Below, in pieces: positions 1 to 8,197 of a stretch of DNA of 8,197 nucleotides (position 1 is its first letter; each line of letters begins with the position of its first letter). The notes beneath the pieces were generated by a model. That model did no database searches, had not been told where the DNA came from, and saw only the letters and a program-made list of their open reading frames with translations. The stretch covers positions 1 through 8,197 of the forward strand of contig CAJINV010000071.1 in assembly GCA_905178155.1 (NCBI GenBank), in the 5' to 3' direction. The position numbers and the translations under genes were made by a program. This stretch comes from Amoebophrya sp. A120. Lineage: Eukaryota; Protista; Dinoflagellata.

Positions 1-210
1 TTTGGATTCCAAAAAAATCTGTATTGCATGAGTACCAAAGGGAATGTAATTCTTGCTACGCGGAGAGGGCATTTGTCATGCGGAATAGGCATCAAGAAGC
101 TCTCAAAAAATCTGTGCTGCTAGGGCATGCATCACAGACATCAGGGCTCATCCAAAACGTGCATGACAAGTGTCAGAGTCTTCCAGACCCAGACATTTTT
201 ACATTTGATA
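1..210. mobile_element. E1: MITE/introner-like TIR element, left ~52 bp outside the window
   Basis: Ends in the TIR ttccagacccagacatttttacatttgata (181-210). 1-210 is the reverse complement of 4597-4806 (E2) with 4 mismatches, at positions 103, 115, 178 and 204. The right flank ccagg (211-215) is the predicted TSD; its partner is outside the window. Confidence 0.92.
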
Positions 211-643
211 CCAGGAGTCGGGCAACCACCACCAGAATCACGAGACCAACAAATTGCACGGGTCTCAGGGTAGAAGTAGAGGTGGCCGGGGAGGCGGCGC
301 CCTTTATCTTCTTTATCCCGTCCTCGTCTCTACTTGCACTAGAAGCTGGCACCACAAAAGAGCCCCTCGTTGTGGAAACGAGGGTCGAACTCCCCTTAAA
401 CTCCGCATCGTCCTGTTGGGCGATGCCCCCGTCATTGTTCCGACCGGTCGGAGCTAAGGTGCCAACCGCTGGGTAGTACTCCACTTCGCTACCGGGCGTA
501 GCCGCGGACGGCCTTACAGTCGCTGCAGAAATTCGAGCAGGCCGCAAAGTGCTGCTAGTGCTGCTCCCCGGCTTTTTTCCTCTCGCGGAGCCTTGGTCTC
601 CCGCGCCCGCGCGGCGCCTCAGTACATCCTCCCGTTGGCTCAT
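211..643 (-). CDS. Hypothetical protein exon, Ser/Thr/Ala-rich with a hydrophobic segment, interrupted by E1
   Basis: GC-rich part of ORF 173..724(-), from the ATG at 643 (MSQREDVLRR...). It has a possible transmembrane stretch FVGLVILVVVARLL, then reads directly into the TIR (SNVKMSGSG) and stops inside E1. Sequence above 643 is AT-rich. Confidence 0.6.
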
Positions 644-1347
644 GAAAAGTTGTGAATGTAAAGAATCAATCTGAAGATAGACAGTACGGAGCTGATATAA
701 AGGCAAGCTGGAAGACACAACCAAAGATTAATTGGTCCGCAACAAATCTTCCAGGAACAATTACAATTTGCAGCAAATTAGGTAGATATCAAGCATATCA
801 ATTTTCAACACGTCAATACTTCGTAGATTAATACTGTCCATCGTGTATTCACAGATCGCATGAAACGGCACACAAAAAGACCCGAGTCTTTTTTTTTGAA
901 AAGTGATCCATCAAAATTATCTGGTACCGAAGCTACAGCTAGATTTACATCACAAACCGATCGGAGATCTCCTGCAGGCATTTGCATTTGTACTAAACAG
1001 ACCACTTGCACTACTACCGAGAATCTGACAATGCTTGACCGACGACATTTTCTTTGATCTTCAGAGCATTACAGCAATTCCGACCCATTTCTTCATTTTC
1101 GATTAAGTAAACCTCCTATGTTCCAGTATCAACATCAAGGAGATAAGCCCTCTGGCGGAGGCAATAGGACCTACCGAGTTGCCGTTTGCAGAGGCGTGGG
1201 GTCACATTTAACTTGGATGCTATATTCTCAATGCACTTAGTGAGAAGATTCTCAATCTTTATTCTCAGATCGGAAAGAAAGCGTTAATCGGCGGTTCCAT
1301 CCACCGTCGCTAGGGCGTCAGCCGGGCAAGAACTCCGGCACGGAAAT

Positions 1348-1836
1348 TCAGCAGCGACTGGACTGGGATCCACGGGAATCCCGTGGTTGGATCAGCCCCA
1401 TCCAGTCTTGGATCATGATGTCACGCCGCACCTCCTCTTTCAGGTGCCGGCCGGCGTTGCCCGCGACCGCAGGCCTTTTACCGCGGAAGCCGAGGTCGCG
1501 ACTTTTCCGGTTGCCACCACGCCTCCCCAGAACGGCGGCGTCCGACTGAATCAGGCTTGCCGCTTGTTTCAAACTCGACCTGCGAGCCCGTGTGGTCGCT
1601 GGATCTCCGGGACCCGAAAGCGCCCGCGCTCTTGCTGCAGCCCTTTGTTGAGGCGGGAGACCGTCAGAACTGTCATTATGGTCGTGTGCAGCGCCTACTA
1701 CTTCCAAGTGCCTAGGTTCATCTGCATCGGACCGGCGCGGGGTCCAGTGCTGCACACATGTTTTGTTTTTTCTGCTATTTTCAGAAGCCGATCTTGCAGC
1801 TGATCGACCACAAGCATGATTTTGATTTTCAAACAT
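1348..1836 (-). CDS. Probable 3' exon of a multi-exon hypothetical gene (5' boundary uncertain)
   Basis: 162-codon ORF, GC-rich over about 1350-1750, on the same strand as neighbouring exons. No recognisable domain. Confidence 0.45.
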   Translation of the reverse strand: MFENQNHACGRSAARSASENSRKNKTCVQHWTPRRSDADEPRHLEVVGAAHDHNDSSDGLPPQQRAAARARALSGPGDPATTRARRSSLKQAASLIQSDAAVLGRRGGNRKSRDLGFRGKRPAVAGNAGRHLKEEVRRDIMIQDWMGLIQPRDSRGSQSSRC

Positions 1837-1961
1837 CGTACATTCTGAGTACTACCACCATCTTCCTGCACATAGATGCACAACGAACTCAACAACAACG
1901 TTATCGGCGAGGACGATGCCATGCTAAGAAGACTGTGCGCAAAACGAAAAACCAGGGCAAA

Positions 1962-2668
1962 TCATATGAGCAAAAGTGAGTATACAACTTGCTGCTTCCG
2001 TGCGCCGTCGCCGCAATCGCGCGCACCGCCGTCCGGCTGGGCTTGGTGGTTGTGGTTTGGCGGTCGAGCTGCTGGTTTGATGACTGGTGCGTCAATTTCG
2101 TGCCTCGCTCGAATAACGTCATCTTCTTGATCGTCTCCCCGGGCCACGCCAAGCAGGTCGACGCTAACGGGCCGTAGTGGCTTCAGCTGGCTGGCACTGT
2201 AGCTCGCGGACCCCGGCCGCCGGCCCCGCCGAGGCCCCTCCAGCAACGCCACCTTCTGGAGCTGCCGTTCCAGATTCCCGTCAACCCTGTTTTTCATCCG
2301 CGCGGCCGCGGCAGCCGAAAGCGATTGCTCCGTCCACGACCGGGCGGAAGAACTGCAAGCGCTGGATGATGTAGTTGCCGCCCCGTGTTGTACTAGTTGA
2401 GCTGTGTGCAGTAGTTCCGGCTGGTGGTTCTTGCCCTTCTCCCCAACCACCGCCTCTTGTGGCGACGCGGTGTTCCGCCCACTCGTCAATCGCGAAGAGG
2501 ACGAGCCTTGCTTTTCCAGCGACAGCTTGTCGATTGCCGAGCGCAACTGCGACGAAGTCAGCGACCCACTACTCGCAGAATAGTCGGTCGACGCAGCGGA
2601 CACCGCGCTCTTGTTCTGCATCCGCTCCCGCCTGTACCTGTGTTCGTCTCTCGCGTAAAGAGTGCGTT
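1962..2668 (-). CDS. Large exon of a low-complexity (Ser/Ala/Arg-rich) hypothetical protein
   Basis: Part of the 248-codon ORF 1962..2708(-), preceded by a strong acceptor tttaatttcctttcttccgcAG ending at 2669. The exon probably ends near 1990, where the sequence turns T-rich on the sense strand. Confidence 0.6.
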
Positions 2669-2749
2669 CTGCGGAAGAAAGGAAATTAAACTTTGATGCT
2701 GCTACCAATGATCACTGAGGATCGGGACAAGTTTCCGCCCATGACTTAC
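2669..2749 (-). other. Putative canonical GT-AG spliceosomal intron (81 nt)
   Basis: Minus-strand donor cca|GTAAGT at 2749 and polypyrimidine tract plus cAG at 2669. Splicing gives in-frame ...KFREQIRIT-K-RTLYARDEH... Confidence 0.6.
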
Positions 2750-2949
2750 TGGTAATTCTAATTTGCTCGCGAAATTTACTACATAATATGCAAGTCACAT
2801 ATCTTCTACCTTTCCGTGAGATACGCCATCACGCTAGCAGACGGCCCAATGTCGCTTTCCTCAGCACTGGGAAGCCAGGAATACTGGACCCGCGAAAGCT
2901 TCGGCTCAAACAGCGACCTACACAGTATTTTTTCGAAGATCACGACCTC
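2750..2949 (-). CDS. Two small putative exons (2810-2949 and 2750-2778) separated by a possible 31-nt GT-AG intron (2779-2809)
   Basis: Acceptor ctccatcAG at 2950. The frame EVVIFEKILCRSLFEPKLSRVQYSWLPSAEESDIGPSASVMAYLTE joins S-KFREQIRIT if GTAGAAG...ATGTAG is removed. Hand-built model with no transcript evidence. Confidence 0.35.
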
Positions 2950-2964
2950 CTGATGGAGCCAGAG

Positions 2965-3435
2965 TTATGTAAGCACACGGCACAGCAAAAAGAAAGGAAA
3001 AACAGAAAGTCCGCTTCTACGAGCGTCATCAACATCACAATTATCATCATCTTCAGGCTCAGGCAACGCAAGCTCCATAAAATACGGTGGCGGCTTCAAG
3101 TGCGAAGACAATTCGGATGAAGTTCGCTTGATTTTTCGCAGCCCGCTGTCCAGAGCTTGCTCCCAACTTAGCAGGGCGCGCTCTTTTTCCGCCGCATCAC
3201 TTATGCCGTGTCCCGAGACCGGCATTTCCGCAGGAGAAGAATCGCTTGTCAGCGCTGTCAAAAATTCTGCTCCTTCTTCTTGACGCGCGTGGGCTCCACG
3301 CTGACGGCTCGTGACTGATGTCTTCTCTGTCGTATCCACTCTATCGGTGTAGGCTTCTGTGTAGCCGGTTTCCAAGTTCTTCACACTTTCCGCCGAGGGT
3401 TGCTGGCTATGGCAGCCAGGAGAAAACCCGCTCAT
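2965..3435 (-). CDS. Probable exon of a hypothetical protein (boundaries approximate)
   Basis: 156-codon ORF. Its last ~20 codons run through a pyrimidine tract (tttcctttctttttgct) that looks intronic. No recognisable domain. Confidence 0.5.
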   Translation of the reverse strand: MSGFSPGCHSQQPSAESVKNLETGYTEAYTDRVDTTEKTSVTSRQRGAHARQEEGAEFLTALTSDSSPAEMPVSGHGISDAAEKERALLSWEQALDSGLRKIKRTSSELSSHLKPPPYFMELALPEPEDDDNCDVDDARRSGLSVFPFFLLCRVLT

Positions 3436-3800
3436 TGTTTACCATTTTCCAAGAGCAAACTTTTGCACTGGTTTACTCGATGCGCCGCCCAGGAACTGCT
3501 CGGAAGTAGACTTGGATGAAGCGCAATAAACTTGGAGTTGTTCCCCACCAAATGGAAATCTGTGGCCTCGCTATGGTGTAGTGTCGAATGTTGATGTGGA
3601 AGCTCTACAAGCTTGTGAATGAGCAGCTGAAGTCGCATTGTGGACATCCAGAAGCTTGACTCAACTTTTTGCGTCTGTCTCTCCACGCGATCGAATCTAT
3701 CTCGGTGTCGACTCTGCTGTCTACTCAGTTCACAATGACACCCTTTTCTGCTCGCTCTGTTTTTATTACTCTGTTGCCGCAAAGTCAAAAAAAAAATCAA
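3432..3800 (-). CDS. Possible upstream exon or hypothetical ORF
   Basis: 122-codon ORF abutting the next minus-strand ORF, with a possible donor g|GTAAAC near 3442. I could not make the splice phases agree. Confidence 0.25.
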   Translation of the reverse strand: MIFFLTLRQQSNKNRASRKGCHCELSRQQSRHRDRFDRVERQTQKVESSFWMSTMRLQLLIHKLVELPHQHSTLHHSEATDFHLVGNNSKFIALHPSLLPSSSWAAHRVNQCKSLLLENGKQ

Positions 3801-4474
3801 GACGAGTCAACCATCAGATCAGCCAAAGAGTCACCTTTCCACGGAGTCACAAAAAAAAGGACCACGTGTCCTATGATATTGCACACGCATTCTTTTGCTT
3901 AACATGCAGATACATCCACACTGAGAAAGTAACGATTTGAAAATAGCCATTCATCCGAAGTGCGACGAAATGTCTTCAGACCTTCCTAGCTACAAAAGTT
4001 GAGAGATGGCTCGACTCTGTTTTTGGTCCCGAGGATTGGCTTTGTCTATACTGAATAAAAGGATTGCTTCTAGAAGCAGTCATCCTGTATTAATTTGGTG
4101 ACGTACGGCCCCGATCACTACTACTCTATCCAGCCACATCCTATTACCTTATCAAGGCAACGTAAGCATCACATAGAGGTGCAAAGAATAAAACACTGTT
4201 TCATGTATAAAGAGGTGAACTTGGTGAGTAACTACAATAAGAAATCGAGTGTCAAATGTCAGATAAGAATGTCAACATCAGCGGAAAAAAGTGGTCACGA
4301 AACTAAGTTGATTTGGGTTTAGTTAGTGCTGCAAATTGAGTATTTACATTGTGCAATGAATAGAAGGAGGACTCAACAAAACCGCCGAATATCGGGCTAG
4401 TCGCAACCCTTCGGCATTGACTGGCAAATCGTGCGCTCCAGTTCATCCCGCCCCACGTAGGATGGTAGATTCCA

Positions 4475-5249
4475 TTAGCGAACGCCTTCCGGATAGGGAT
4501 ACCCATACATGACAGGTGCTGGTGGCTCGTCGTGGTGTGCTGCTTCCGACTCCGGGGAACTTTCCTGCTGCGAGAAGAGGACGTTCAGCATGGCTTTATC
4601 AACTGTAAAAATGTCTGGGTCTGGAAGATTCTGACACTTGTCATGCACGTTTTGGATGAGCCCTGATGTCTGTGATGCATGCCCTAGCAGCGCAGATTTT
4701 TTGGGAGCTTCTTGATGCCTATTCCGCATGACAAATGCCCTCTCCGCGTAGCAAGAATTACATTCCCTTTGGTACTCATGCAATACAGATTTTTTTGGAA
4801 TCCAAATGCAGCATTACAAGTTGGATTCTTCCAGACCCAGACATTTTTACATTTGATAGGCTTCGCGGTCGTGCCATTCCTCCTCCACCATCTCGTCCTT
4901 CTCGACGCGTTATCAAATGCAAAAATGTCTGGGTCTGGAAGGATGCGAACTTGTGATGCGTGTTGCGGATAATCCAAAAATCTGTGTTGCATGACTTGCA
5001 AAAGGTCCCCATTTCTAGCCATGCCTTGGGGTCATTTCTGATGCAGAATAGGCATCACTAAGGTGCTGCAGAACCTGCGATGCTAGGCCCTGCATTACAG
5101 ACTTGGCGGAGCTTGGAAAAACTGCATGACAAATCTCGGAATTTTCCAGACCCAGACATTTTTACATTTGATACGCGTCCCTCGTGCTCCCGCACGAAGG
5201 CGAGTGGGGAAGGGTATGAAAGTGGACAGATCCCTCCAATCCCTTGCAT
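4475..5249 (-). CDS. Hypothetical protein or terminal exons, interrupted by E3 and E2; join(5174-5249, 4859-4905, 4475-4591)
   Basis: Removing E3+TSD (268 nt) and E2+TSD (267 nt) gives 79 aa: MQGIGGICPLSYPSPLAFVREHEGRV-EKDEMVEEEWHDREA-MLNVLFSQQESSPESEAAHHDEPPAPVMYGYPYPEGVR*. The true start is uncertain because an AG|GTGAGT donor lies at 5274(-). Other frames are also open over this short stretch. Confidence 0.5.
4597..4858. mobile_element. E2: 262-bp MITE/introner-like element, interior inverted relative to E1, E3, E4 and E5
   Basis: TIRs at 4597-4626 (one A>C change at 4603) and 4829-4858. TSD ggctt at 4592-4596 and 4859-4863. Confidence 0.95.
4911..5173. mobile_element. E3: 263-bp MITE/introner-like element
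   Basis: TIRs at 4911-4940 and 5144-5173. TSD cgcgt at 4906-4910 and 5174-5178. Confidence 0.95.
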
Positions 5250-5502
5250 GATAATTTTGGGAAAATATACTCACCTATGCAAAGATAGCTTTTGCACCTG
5301 CACGACAAAGGAGCACGTGCACGATTCAGGTTTTATTCAGATGAATGTATTTCGTCCGGTCGAGACAGTCCGATAGATGCCCGAAGGCCCATTATCTTCT
5401 AAAGTTCGTCATGCAATTACTGCCAAAAACCTAAGATAAGACGTATTTGACCTTTGGGTTCTTTCACTGACGAGGGGAACAAAGGAAACAAGCAGTCCAC
5501 TA

Positions 5503-8195
5503 TCATAAAAGAGGCTCTTCCACCAAAAACGGGTGGTCCGGGGGCACTTCGGTTCTTGTCCACTTCCCGAGCCAGCCCGAAGCGATTTTACCTGCCGTGA
5601 TTTTCTGGACATCCAGGTACTGAATCGGTTGCATGACCTCCCATAACCGATTCTGCTCCTCGCTTTCCCGTTGACACTCCTCCACACTTTTGTACCGTGT
5701 CGACTGCTATCAAATGTAAAAATGTCTGGGTCTGGAAGAGTGCATGCTTGTCATGCTTGTCTGGCATGACTCTCAAATCTGTCACGCACGTTACCCAAGA
5801 GCGCCACTTTTCTGTCATTCAGAAACGCAGTTTGTCATGCAGAATAGGCAACACCTAGAAGCTCAGAAACTTGTCATGCTGAGCCAGCACTTGTGGCCTC
5901 CTCATGATACGCCACCCAGCATCACAAGTTTCCAGACCCAGACATTTTTGCATTTGATAACTGCAGGGGTGCGTTCAAAGCTTCAAAGTTTTCTGAGGAA
6001 CCCGCGACGAGGTCCACCACGTCGAGTTTCCAGCGAATCCGTACAAAATCGCAGTATTTCCTCGTGCGCCCCTTTTCGTAGTTCTGCCAGGCACCCACCG
6101 GGTAGAACTTCTCGGTGGGACGAGAGTAGGGCTGAATGCAGGCAAGCGTTATCCCGGTGGCGAGACCGAAGGAAGGCGATTTCTGCTCGTACAGGAAGCG
6201 TCCGGGGGAGAGGTCGTGTACTTGGAGCACATAGCTTCCCACGGGACCGCGGACATCATCTCTGGCAAACGGACGCAAGGCAATGACGCGCAACGAGGCC
6301 AGGTCGTATCAAATGTAAAAATGTCTGGGTCTGGAAGAATGCAACTTGTGATGCTGCGTCTGCATTATCCAAAAATCTGTATTGCATGAACAGCAAAAGA
6401 GGTCTGATTTTGGCCACGGCGAGAGGGGATTTCTCATGCGGCATAGGCATCAGAAAGCCCTCACAAGATCTGTGATGGTAGGGCATGCATCGCAGACATC
6501 AGGAGTCATGCAAAATGTGCATGACAAACCTTGCATCCTTCCAGACCCAGACATTTTTGCATTTGATAGGTCGACCGTGTTCGCCAGATTCCGAAGTTGC
6601 TTTTCGAGCACACCAGGTTGCTCCTGCTTCTGCTCGTCATCTTCATTTTTACCGATCGCGGGGCTAAATGGACGCCCGTCCTCCACGGAGTTTTCGTCCT
6701 CACCCTCATTTATTCCGGAGCTTGATCCTCCGGGTCGGCGAAGGCCTTGCACCCTGCCAGCGGCATTCGCTGCCCAGTCCGGCAGGAGGTTCAACTTGAA
6801 GTGCTTCAGCCCAACTCGCACAGGAATCTTCAGCACTGGCGGAACACTGCGAATCACGCTGTTCTCGACACTGGGAACCAGTTCGAACCCCGCGGAAACG
6901 GAGGCGGGATTCCTTTTCGTTCGGTCGACTGACGGCTCGAACAGGCGCGCAAGTTGGAACATGCGCGGCTGGTGCAGGGCGGTGAACACGAATTGCGAAA
7001 ACTCTCTTGTTGCGCACTTCGCAAGCTTTTCGTCCGGCCCAATCAACAACATCACAAGCGGAAAAAGCTTTGCCGGGACATTCAGAAAGTGCGCCCAGTC
7101 CGGGGTCACTTGCGCGAGGTTGGTATTTGCTCCCAGTAGAGGACCCTGCCGAATTCTGGTGTTCTGCTGCTTTTTCACGTCGATCGCGCCACGATATACC
7201 GCAACGAGGTACTCCTTGTACAACTGACGCGCGATATCTTCCGCACTGGACTCTTTCATTAATTCAATCTGTTCCGCGGAATGCGCCTTGTGGACCGCCA
7301 GCACGCCCGCGCCGTCTGGAATTCGCGAAGACGATGATGTCTGGCTCAGCCGCCTCGCGGCCGGCCAAAAGTCGGGATCCACTTTGCCCATCTTCGCTTT
7401 AGCATCCTCCAGCCCTTTGTCCAAGCGATTCAAATCCAGGGTTCCTGCTCCGAGGGTGTGAGCAGCGCGGAGCTTTTGCAAACGTTCGGAGCTCTCTGCG
7501 GTGATCCCAGCCGAGTCTCGCAGGGAGGTGAGGTAGGATGTCACTGCTTTGTCCTTGACGCGACGGAGACGGACGGCACGGCCCACCGCACGCAACACCA
7601 CGGAATGGTCATTGTCCGAGTCGCATATCCTTCCCGCGGCGGTCAGCTCGGCGACCAGAAACAAACCGGCATCCCAGACTTCGCCCACAGAGGTCGCGTT
7701 CCACCACGTGTTGGAGATTTGCGCGGAGAACACGTCCGCGAAATTCACAACGGCCTGCCTGTGTAAATCTTGATACATAGCTTGCAAGACGGTTAGGGCG
7801 GACCGGATGGTCTTTGCCAGCGCGTCCCGGGCGGGGCACCTGTCCCCGTGCACGTTCACGTCGCAGGAAGCTGCAATCGCTTGCAATGATCGCCAGTCCG
7901 CGGTCTCATGCAACGTCTCGAGAAGAGCTTTCGTGCGCCGGAGCGCTCGCAGCTGGGCTCGAAAATCCCGGTGGAGAAAGAATGTGCCCGGCACATCCAC
8001 GAGGGCGTGCGCAGAGAGCAGGCGAACGTTGCGGCAGCTGTAGGCATCCTTCAACCCGTTTCTACCCAAGTCGAAGCACGTCCAGTGTTTCGGCGTGCAC
8101 GAGAGGTCGGCCCGGTACTGGCAGAACACCTCGGTTTGTGCATTTTTCACCAAGCCGCAGGAGCCCAATGCTGCTTTGGCTACTGCTTTGGACGG
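5503..8195 (-). CDS. Large hypothetical protein (at least 722 aa, 5' end outside the window), interrupted by E5 and E4; join(6569->8195, 5960-6301, 5503-5702)
   Basis: The frame of ORF 6450..8168 is open to the window edge. Removing E5+TSD (267 nt) gives ...NLANTVD-L-ASLRVIALRPF... and removing E4+TSD (257 nt) gives ...LNAPLQ-S-TRYKSVEECQRE...EEPLL* (stop at 5503-5505). This fuses three separately called ORFs. No domain recognised. Confidence 0.8.
5708..5959. mobile_element. E4: 252-bp MITE/introner-like element (most divergent interior by eye)
   Basis: TIRs at 5708-5737 and 5930-5959. TSD actgc at 5703-5707 and 5960-5964. Confidence 0.95.
6307..6568. mobile_element. E5: 262-bp MITE/introner-like element
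   Basis: TIRs at 6307-6336 and 6539-6568. TSD ggtcg at 6302-6306 and 6569-6573. Confidence 0.95.
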
Positions 8196-8197
8196 CG

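Follow-up and report, generated by a model that had tools for sequence, protein, structure and literature searches.

The DNA analysed here, called the window, comprises the 8,197 nt at positions 1 to 8,197 of contig CAJINV010000071.1 of the dinoflagellate Amoebophrya sp. A120 (assembly GCA_905178155.1), and all coordinates are given on it unless another locus is named. Five copies of one element with terminal inverted repeats (TIRs) lie in these 8.2 kb, four complete (E2 to E5) and one partial (E1), and two of them, E4 and E5, interrupt a gene whose sense strand is the minus strand (Table 1). The elements stand in the DNA, and transcript-like contigs lack the four complete ones, each together with one copy of its target-site duplication (TSD). 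Very probably, element and one TSD copy are removed exactly at the RNA level, as non-canonical introns.

The complete copies span 252-263 nt. Their TIRs, 30-38 nt long, begin TATCAAATG[T/C]AAAAATGTCTGGGTCTGGAA, with the reverse complement at the far end. The element ends read TATCAA... and ...TTGATA, and the flanks are variable. E1, E3, E4 and E5 share one orientation and E2 is inverted. The TIR arms of E4 pair along 30 nt (97%) and those of E5 along 38 nt (95%), and when the RNA of the sense strand is folded the TIRs are paired in both elements, with -112 kcal/mol (z -5.8) for E4 and -131.1 kcal/mol (z -9.9) for E5. An exact 5-nt TSD flanks all four complete copies, each with a chance expectation of about 1 in 1024; a duplication of 5 bp would be in keeping with an integrase-type enzyme. 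TIRs, a TSD whose length is fixed, a small size, a high copy number and the lack of coding capacity are the features of MITEs (miniature inverted-repeat transposable elements), i.e. of TIR DNA transposons that are non-autonomous, and at 252-263 nt the copies are too short to hold a transposase gene. The window elements are non-autonomous TIR transposons sitting in exons. Rfam returned 0 matches at gathering scores, and a blastn search with E5 against a phage collection gave no match.

Reading frames of the interrupted gene

The minus-strand open reading frames (ORFs) end inside the elements, at stops at 6450-6452 in E5 and 5922-5924 in E4. With one TSD copy, E5 measures 267 nt (3 x 89) and keeps the frame despite the in-frame stop within it; E4 with its TSD measures 257 nt and shifts the frame in addition to bringing a stop. 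Once 5708-5964 and 6307-6573 are left out, a single open frame of 722 codons runs along the minus strand from 8195 until it reaches the stop at 5503-5505, with no other lesion. An earlier note on this DNA, made from the sequence alone, had claimed in-frame stops at 6450 and 5922, a frameshift by E4 and the joining of three ORFs once each element is deleted with one TSD copy. The ORF ends, the two lengths and the 722 codons agree with it in every point. Codon usage in the ORF of exon A favours the minus strand by a log-likelihood ratio (LLR) of +140.7 bits, with this ORF held out.

The interrupted gene is predicted to encode an orphan protein. A Pfam search of the 722-codon product found no family, the only weak hit being Ribosomal_L3 on the 67-aa tail with an E-value of 0.16, under the cut-off. 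A word-indexed search for homologues of 297-945 aa gave no match, the ESM Atlas gave no usable match, and a full HMMER scan matched only one 150-aa fragment of 100% identity; beyond this fragment, 1.8 billion representatives held no homologue. Farhat et al. (2021; PMC7789003) report rapid protein evolution in Amoebophrya, with which an orphan status fits, although this proves nothing.

Elements in DNA and in transcripts

The window was compared with the assemblies of a DNA-like run, X1 (sample S1, study P1), and of RNA-like runs, X3 to X6 (sample S2, study P2). X1 covers 30/30 window bins at about 23-38x outside repeats, with contigs of up to 95 kb. Its unitigs (187-4622, 4835-4935, 5150-5731, 5936-6328 and 6543-8197) extend beyond the unique flanks and enter the TIRs by 22-26 nt, with 0 other letters. 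Since this reach far exceeds the duplication, filled sites are present in the DNA at single-copy depth. Empty-site joints were sought in X1 at E2, E3 and both elements of a second locus, L146, described below, and 0 contigs carry one.

In X3, depth is 0 over 275-1096 and 0.31 over 3563-3836. With an intergenic depth close to zero and a contig that lacks the GT-AG intron at 1750-1985, X3 behaves as cDNA. In one of its contigs (record 12; 2375 nt, depth 23.4), the pieces 5508-5702, 5960-6300 and 6568-8197 directly adjoin, with joints 5702|5960 and 6300|6568, so that E4 and E5 are gone, each with one TSD copy. The exons of this contig match the window with 0 other letters over 2166 nt and thus come from the same strain. 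Another contig (record 10; 617 nt, depth 124.5) has the joints 4591|4859 and 4904|5173; here E2 and E3, which are of opposite orientations, are both missing from a single contig. Element and one TSD copy are therefore absent at 4/4 complete window elements. In X3 to X6, the share of sampled words found (0.76-0.82) is as expected of a stretch missing 524 of its 2693 bases.

The sites are filled in the DNA, the transcript joints are exact, removal occurs in both orientations, and canonical ends are lacking (see below). Precise removal, proposed in the earlier note, is thus supported at all four window elements and at both elements of L146, and the plus-strand junctions that it had predicted for E5 and E4 are exactly those of X3 record 12. 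It had left a choice between RNA and DNA; the filled junctions and the 0 empty joints at four sites in X1 favour RNA.

Table 1. Elements, exons and introns in the window
Feature	Position	Strand	Description	Further observation
E1	1-210		partial, cut by window start	98% complementary to E2
E2	4597-4858		262 nt, TSD GGCTT, inverted relative to E3-E5	267 nt with TSD, skipped in transcript contig
E3	4911-5173		263 nt, TSD CGCGT, orientation as E4 and E5	268 nt with TSD, skipped in transcript contig
E4	5708-5959		252 nt, TSD ACTGC at 5703-5707 and 5960-5964	257 nt skipped in transcript contig
E5	6307-6568		262 nt, TSD GGTCG at 6302-6306 and 6569-6573	267 nt skipped in transcript contig
Exon A	6574..8195	-	open at window end; 540 full codons at 6576-8195	ORF 6450..8195
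Exon B	5965..6301	-	middle exon, a TSD copy on either side	X3 record 12 piece 5960-6300
Exon C	5503..5702	-	stop codon 5503-5505; ORF 5503..5706	X3 record 12 piece 5508-5702
Short ORF, putatively coding	~4480-5240 (approximate)	-	spans the E3 and E2 junctions and the 46-nt micro-exon 4859-4904
Ordinary GT..AG intron	1750-1985	-	236 nt	absent from X3 contig
Non-canonical AT..TA intron	2635-3083	-	449 nt	skipped in X3 record 9

The short minus-strand ORF across E3 and E2 probably codes for protein, judging from its codon usage (LLR +30.5 bits for minus). After excision of both elements it comprises 79 codons from the first Met and is acidic. The depth figure of the contig over it is about five times that of the neighbouring gene's contig.

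Two raw RNA runs with the same species label, X9 and X10, gave 3 reads each on the 8.2-kb window, all of them partial and on repeats. The raw runs X9 to X11 date from 2026, and the small number of reads probably reflects another strain or little parasite RNA.

Splice borders and neighbouring introns

Sliding the borders through the TSD gives 6-7 equivalent placements per element. On the sense strand, none of them gives GT-AG, GC-AG or AT-AC for any of the four complete elements (0/4), as the earlier note had stated. Canonical-looking placements exist on the plus strand only, namely GT..AG for E5 at 6303-6569 and GC..AG for E2 at 4593-4859; these were rejected as splice sites, the plus strand being antisense by codon usage. 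In the family as a whole, a canonical dinucleotide pair is possible on either strand in 22/88 copies (chance 0.21) and on the ORF strand in 4/22 (chance 0.11). Canonical splice dinucleotides are thus at chance level. A U12-type (AT-AC) intron is equally absent, as no AT..AC placement occurs on the sense strand, and the small nuclear RNAs (snRNAs) of the minor spliceosome are given as absent by Farhat et al. (2021; PMC7789003).

Two further introns lie outside the elements. The GT-AG intron at 1750-1985 is of the ordinary kind. The AT..TA intron at 2635-3083 can be placed in one way only and shows neither a direct repeat nor terminal pairing, and look-alikes of it were absent among the 151 family stretches listed. 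Both are missing from the same transcript contig, so that canonical and non-canonical removal coexist in one transcript. Since intron 2635-3083 lacks a repeat, non-canonical removal also takes place here without microhomology.

The element family

In one public assembly, at least 151 stretches carry the 20-nt TIR core. From these, 101 non-redundant complete copies of 240-293 nt (modes 252 and 262) were taken, each TIR differing from the consensus by at most 4 substitutions, a filter that under-samples degenerate copies such as the second element of L146. The 5-nt flanks are identical in 90 of the 101 copies, differ at one position in 8 and at two in 1, and show three or four mismatches in 2. 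The target sites have no consensus. A palindromic target, suggested by E3, E4 and E5, was rejected, the complementary pairs (14-28/90) being at chance level.

For the 39 copies whose duplication is perfect and whose flanks measure at least 900 nt on either side, the longest open frame spanning the junction was compared between modes of removal. The median is 271 codons when the element is removed with one TSD copy, 191 when the element only is removed, 212 when it is removed with both TSDs, and 131 when it is left in. Removal with one TSD gives a longer frame than removal of the element only in 30/39 copies (Wilcoxon p = 8e-5), and a longer one than removal of both duplications in 26/39. Frames of at least 200 codons hold 24/39 copies. 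No orientation bias was found: among 22 copies in ORFs of at least 250 codons, 10 point in the direction of the ORF and 12 in the opposite one.

In an alignment of 105 copies, islands around GTCATGC / GCATGAC recur about six times inside the element, in both directions. They equal the TIRs in conservation, against only 40-60% for the sequence in between, and might represent subterminal protein-binding repeats or additional stem segments. TIR pairs lying 481-1031 nt apart with matching 5-nt flanks were also found (L067 1491-2521, L075 1491-2462, L048 1805-2435 and L047 571-1051). Longer members of the family, nested insertions or chance matches to GC-rich flanks could each account for these units, none of which is long enough for a transposase.

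A second locus

L146 is a locus on an unrelated contig of a public assembly and was compared with X1, X3, X4 and X6; coordinates in this section are its own unless marked. X3, X4 and X6 each give a contig of 3.5-4.5 kb made of 212-286, 554-599 and 858-1012. The joints 286|554 and 599|858 skip two elements, with 267 and 258 nt missing, in each case the element plus 5 nt. The rule of element plus 5 is accordingly followed by 6/6 elements examined in the window and at L146. In the element at 291-552, three mismatches disturb the outer 7 bp of the stem, and the one at 605-857 has lost much of its left TIR; both are still removed exactly.

One duplication at L146 is imperfect and informative on the position of the cut. 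It reads AGGGT on the left and TGGGT on the right, and the transcripts keep A286 and lose T553 (joint 286|554, with 4 letters ambiguous). By codon usage the sense strand is minus (+28.4 bits over 91 codons), a method that gave the right sign in 86/90 in-sample windows. This offers a hint that, on the sense strand, it is the 3' copy that supplies the repeat's last base, which would exclude an intron made of the element and its 3' copy. It is no more than a hint, as the RNA contigs differ at 6/276 letters and X1 barely covers the flanks; template switching would moreover predict the same outcome. Retention of the entire 3' copy would mean that all introns of the family end in the element's own ...GATA, an end that would share its TA with the repeat-free intron at 2635-3083 of the window.

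In both loci two elements lie 52 nt apart, with a 46-nt micro-exon between them (4859-4904 in the window, 554-599 at L146). The two 52-nt stretches are unrelated in sequence, and the spacing is either a coincidence or the result of preferred insertion beside an existing copy. The transcript contigs leave L146 at 212 and 1012, with long loose ends in X3 and X4, which points to further introns or elements of other families on both sides of its 276 nt of exons. Positions 1-211 bear GCATGACAA-type motifs.

Comparison with known systems

Farhat et al. (2021; PMC7789003) studied Amoebophrya A25 and A120 and class over 60% of the introns with RNA support as non-canonical, with an average length of about 240 nt in A120. 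A subset, the introner elements, have inverted repeats of 8-20 nt and direct repeats of 3-5 nt over their borders. In A120, 29,850 repeated introns make up 17% of the assembly, and the inverted-repeat motif is TAT, followed by 7 variable nucleotides and at least 3 A. The window TIR, TAT-CAAATG[T/C]-AAAAA, fits this motif. The likeness extends to non-canonical borders, terminal inverted repeats, direct repeats of 3-5 nt, repeated families throughout the strain and the lack of a transposase inside. The differences are no more than details, in that the arms are 30-38 nt here against motifs of 8-20 nt as published (PMC7789003), and the repeat is fixed at 5 nt abutting the TIR in 90/101 copies. The exact TIR string has 0 occurrences in one supplementary text file of Farhat et al., the motif figures being outside this comparison. 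Gozashti et al. (2025; PMC12130899) describe A120 introners as derived in part from diverse TIR DNA transposons, some with integrase-like ORFs.

The link to Amoebophrya introner elements, which the earlier note had drawn, was right: the anatomy is the same (PMC7789003), and the phenomenon is already in print as the introner-element class of Farhat et al. (2021). The window elements show RNA-supported removal without GT-AG, inverted repeats able to form a hairpin, direct repeats of 3-5 nt, a repeated family without transposase and the A120 motif.

Canonical introners are TIR/TSD DNA transposons that create introns genome-wide in both orientations, and they carry or co-opt GT/AG (or GC/AG) sites. 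Those of Micromonas, Aureococcus and Polarella were reportedly described by Huff in 2016 and by Roy in 2023. In contrast, splice sites supplied by element or TSD are found here in 0/4 window elements and at chance level in the family. Ciliate internal eliminated sequences (IESs) are likewise transposon-derived, have short direct repeats and are removed precisely, leaving one repeat, but from DNA. In the present case the elements are present in the DNA run and missing only on the transcript side, with 0 empty joints in X1 at 4 sites, a count with which a rare empty form is compatible.

Two non-canonical intron types from other lineages are similar in some respects. Nonconventional introns of euglenids (PMC11282704, PMC12501133) share variable non-canonical borders, a stem joining the ends, TSD-like repeats and a suspected MITE origin. 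In Euglena, the signature is a CAG at +4 to +6 that pairs with a CTG near the 3' end, together with an exon that begins with a purine (Nomura et al. 2025, PMC12501133). This CAG/CTG and purine signature is absent from the elements here, and their stems are far longer. The present elements are moreover one high-copy family with a fixed 5-nt duplication, in an alveolate and not in Euglenozoa. The introns of Fritillaria borealis (PMC11282704) are mostly non-GT-AG, probably MITE-derived and efficiently removed. They prefer AG-AC or AG-AT ends, whereas no end is preferred here and a long terminal hairpin is present. The reference list of PMC11282704 and abstracts on these introns attribute the removal of Fritillaria introns to an adapted U2 system.

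Proposed mechanism and alternatives

The best explanation overall, at a probability of roughly 0.6, is that the elements are removed from the pre-mRNA as introner-class introns, with a hairpin setting the borders and a spliceosome tolerant of the ends carrying out the removal. The two TIRs would pair in the pre-mRNA into a stem of at least 30 bp, and this stem would bring both direct-repeat copies next to each other. Cuts at matching positions in the pair, followed by joining, would then restore the sequence from before the insertion. The borders would be set by structure and not by sequence, and the machinery would be a spliceosome with relaxed recognition of intron ends. We infer both the guidance by the hairpin and the machinery. 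That the TIR stem defines the borders is the likelier of the two; for a spliceosomal machinery the odds are about even. Nearly all spliceosomal proteins were found by Farhat et al. (2021; PMC7789003), but U1 snRNA was not detected, and it is for this reason that relaxed recognition of the ends is proposed. A tolerant general system must exist, since a GT-AG intron and the repeat-free AT..TA intron occur in the same transcript cluster.

The main rival, though less likely, is a structure-reading route that needs no splice-site sequence. Here the TIR stem alone would mark the two cuts at equivalent positions of the 5-nt duplication, in either orientation and independently of the spliceosome. After cleavage of both strands at the stem base by an endonuclease, an RNA ligase would join the exons, and the element would be freed as a circle or a linear hairpin, much as is suspected for the euglenid nonconventional introns. 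The lack of conserved terminal dinucleotides and of any TSD consensus would agree with it, as would the position of the borders within the duplicated 5 nt at the stem base in 6/6 cases. Removal is also independent of orientation, so a strand-specific internal branch site or polypyrimidine tract cannot be required unless it is present on both strands. The euglenid nonconventional introns, with their variable borders, end-joining stem and TSD-like repeats, are excised as circles (PMC11282704, PMC12501133); the Euglena CAG/CTG signature, however, is absent from the element ends. Some removal at this locus is not guided by a stem, as intron 2635-3083 has neither repeat nor terminal pairing, and elements with degenerate TIRs are still removed exactly. 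The presence of nearly all spliceosomal proteins (PMC7789003) argues in the same direction, and so does the tunicate case, in which MITE-like introns are efficiently excised (PMC11282704), by an evolved U2 spliceosome according to the title of the Henriet 2019 paper cited there.

Removal by an end-tolerant spliceosome at hairpin-set borders has its own difficulties, and the following points weigh against it. The exact removal of the frayed and degenerate copies at L146 is at odds with a strict dependence on perfect terminal pairing. All RNA evidence consists of assembled contigs from one sample and one study, and such contigs drop rare forms and cannot give the share of transcripts that keep the elements. 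X3 to X6 were tagged as 'RNA?' by way of a guess, their RNA nature being deduced from the intergenic depth of 0 and the missing GT-AG intron. The 22-26 letters by which the X1 unitigs enter the TIRs fall short of the 31-letter bridging rule, and the X1 counts of empty joints cover E2, E3 and the two L146 elements, not E4 and E5. The intact ORFs are weak evidence of selection: TSD pairs differ at about 10/495 sites, so the insertions are young, and at that age about 1 new stop per 700 codons is expected by estimate. ORF intactness as a proof of selection was rejected on these grounds, the TSD pairs differing at only about 2% of sites. The homologue searches yielded no orthologue for a dN/dS comparison. 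Finally, all RNA evidence has passed through reverse transcriptase, and template switching has its textbook substrate in a strong hairpin with direct repeats on either side; the terms 'template switch', 'artefact' and 'reverse transcript' have 0 occurrences in the main text by Farhat et al. (PMC7789003).

The last of these points leads to a very different reading, in which the mRNAs keep the elements in vivo, the genes are disabled, and reverse transcriptase jumps the hairpin between the direct repeats. Hairpins of -112 to -131 kcal/mol with 5-nt direct repeats are a classic template-switch substrate, the evidence comes entirely from cDNA-derived contigs, the 3'-copy base is kept at the informative position of L146, and with young insertions intact frames are no proof of function. 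We nevertheless regard such an artefact as very improbable. Given the 24/39 well-flanked copies in frames of at least 200 codons and the great abundance of the family, the artefact would imply the loss of a large proportion of genes. The joined form appears as single unbranched contigs of 2.4-4.5 kb over 2 joints each (X3 at the window; X3, X4 and X6 at L146), which indicates that it is the dominant form in the cDNA. Intron 2635-3083 is removed as well although it has no repeat, the poorly pairing L146 element is removed just as exactly as the others, and published RNA-seq support covers more than 60% of all introns as non-canonical ones (PMC7789003).

Removal from DNA, whether by IES-like elimination or by transposase excision in transcribing nuclei, or RNA stemming from cells or alleles without the insertions, is the least likely of the readings, and we give it hardly any weight. 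TIRs and TSDs are indeed those of excisable transposons, and the samples differ between the DNA run (S1, P1) and the RNA-like runs (S2, P2). The filled junctions in X1 are nonetheless at single-copy depth (~25x), and 0 X1 contigs have an empty joint at E2, E3 or the two L146 sites, although a rare empty form could go unseen in contigs. Over 2166 nt the exons of X3 record 12 are letter-perfect, which points to the same strain, and 6/6 elements would have to be absent simultaneously.

Significance

The question at stake is how a cell removes tens of thousands of transposon-derived introns without a splice-site consensus. Among the papers listed, literature searches found no mechanistic follow-up on intron removal in Amoebophrya. 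The window is a compact test case, with four elements in both orientations beside a GT-AG and a repeat-free AT..TA intron in one transcript cluster. To the published picture the analysis adds that the duplication is fixed at 5 nt and that only the removal of the element with one duplication restores the frames. Orientation and target sequence are irrelevant, canonical dinucleotides are at chance, and copies with frayed or degenerate TIRs are exactly removed. Through the imperfect duplications (8/101 copies with one mismatch, 1 with two) the position of the cut could be mapped across the genome. In annotation, gene finders built on GT-AG will split such genes into pieces resembling pseudogenes. 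If removal by the stem alone were true, it would be a third route of intron removal from nuclear mRNA, convergent with the euglenid nonconventional introns, and a transposon could land in any exon at no cost.

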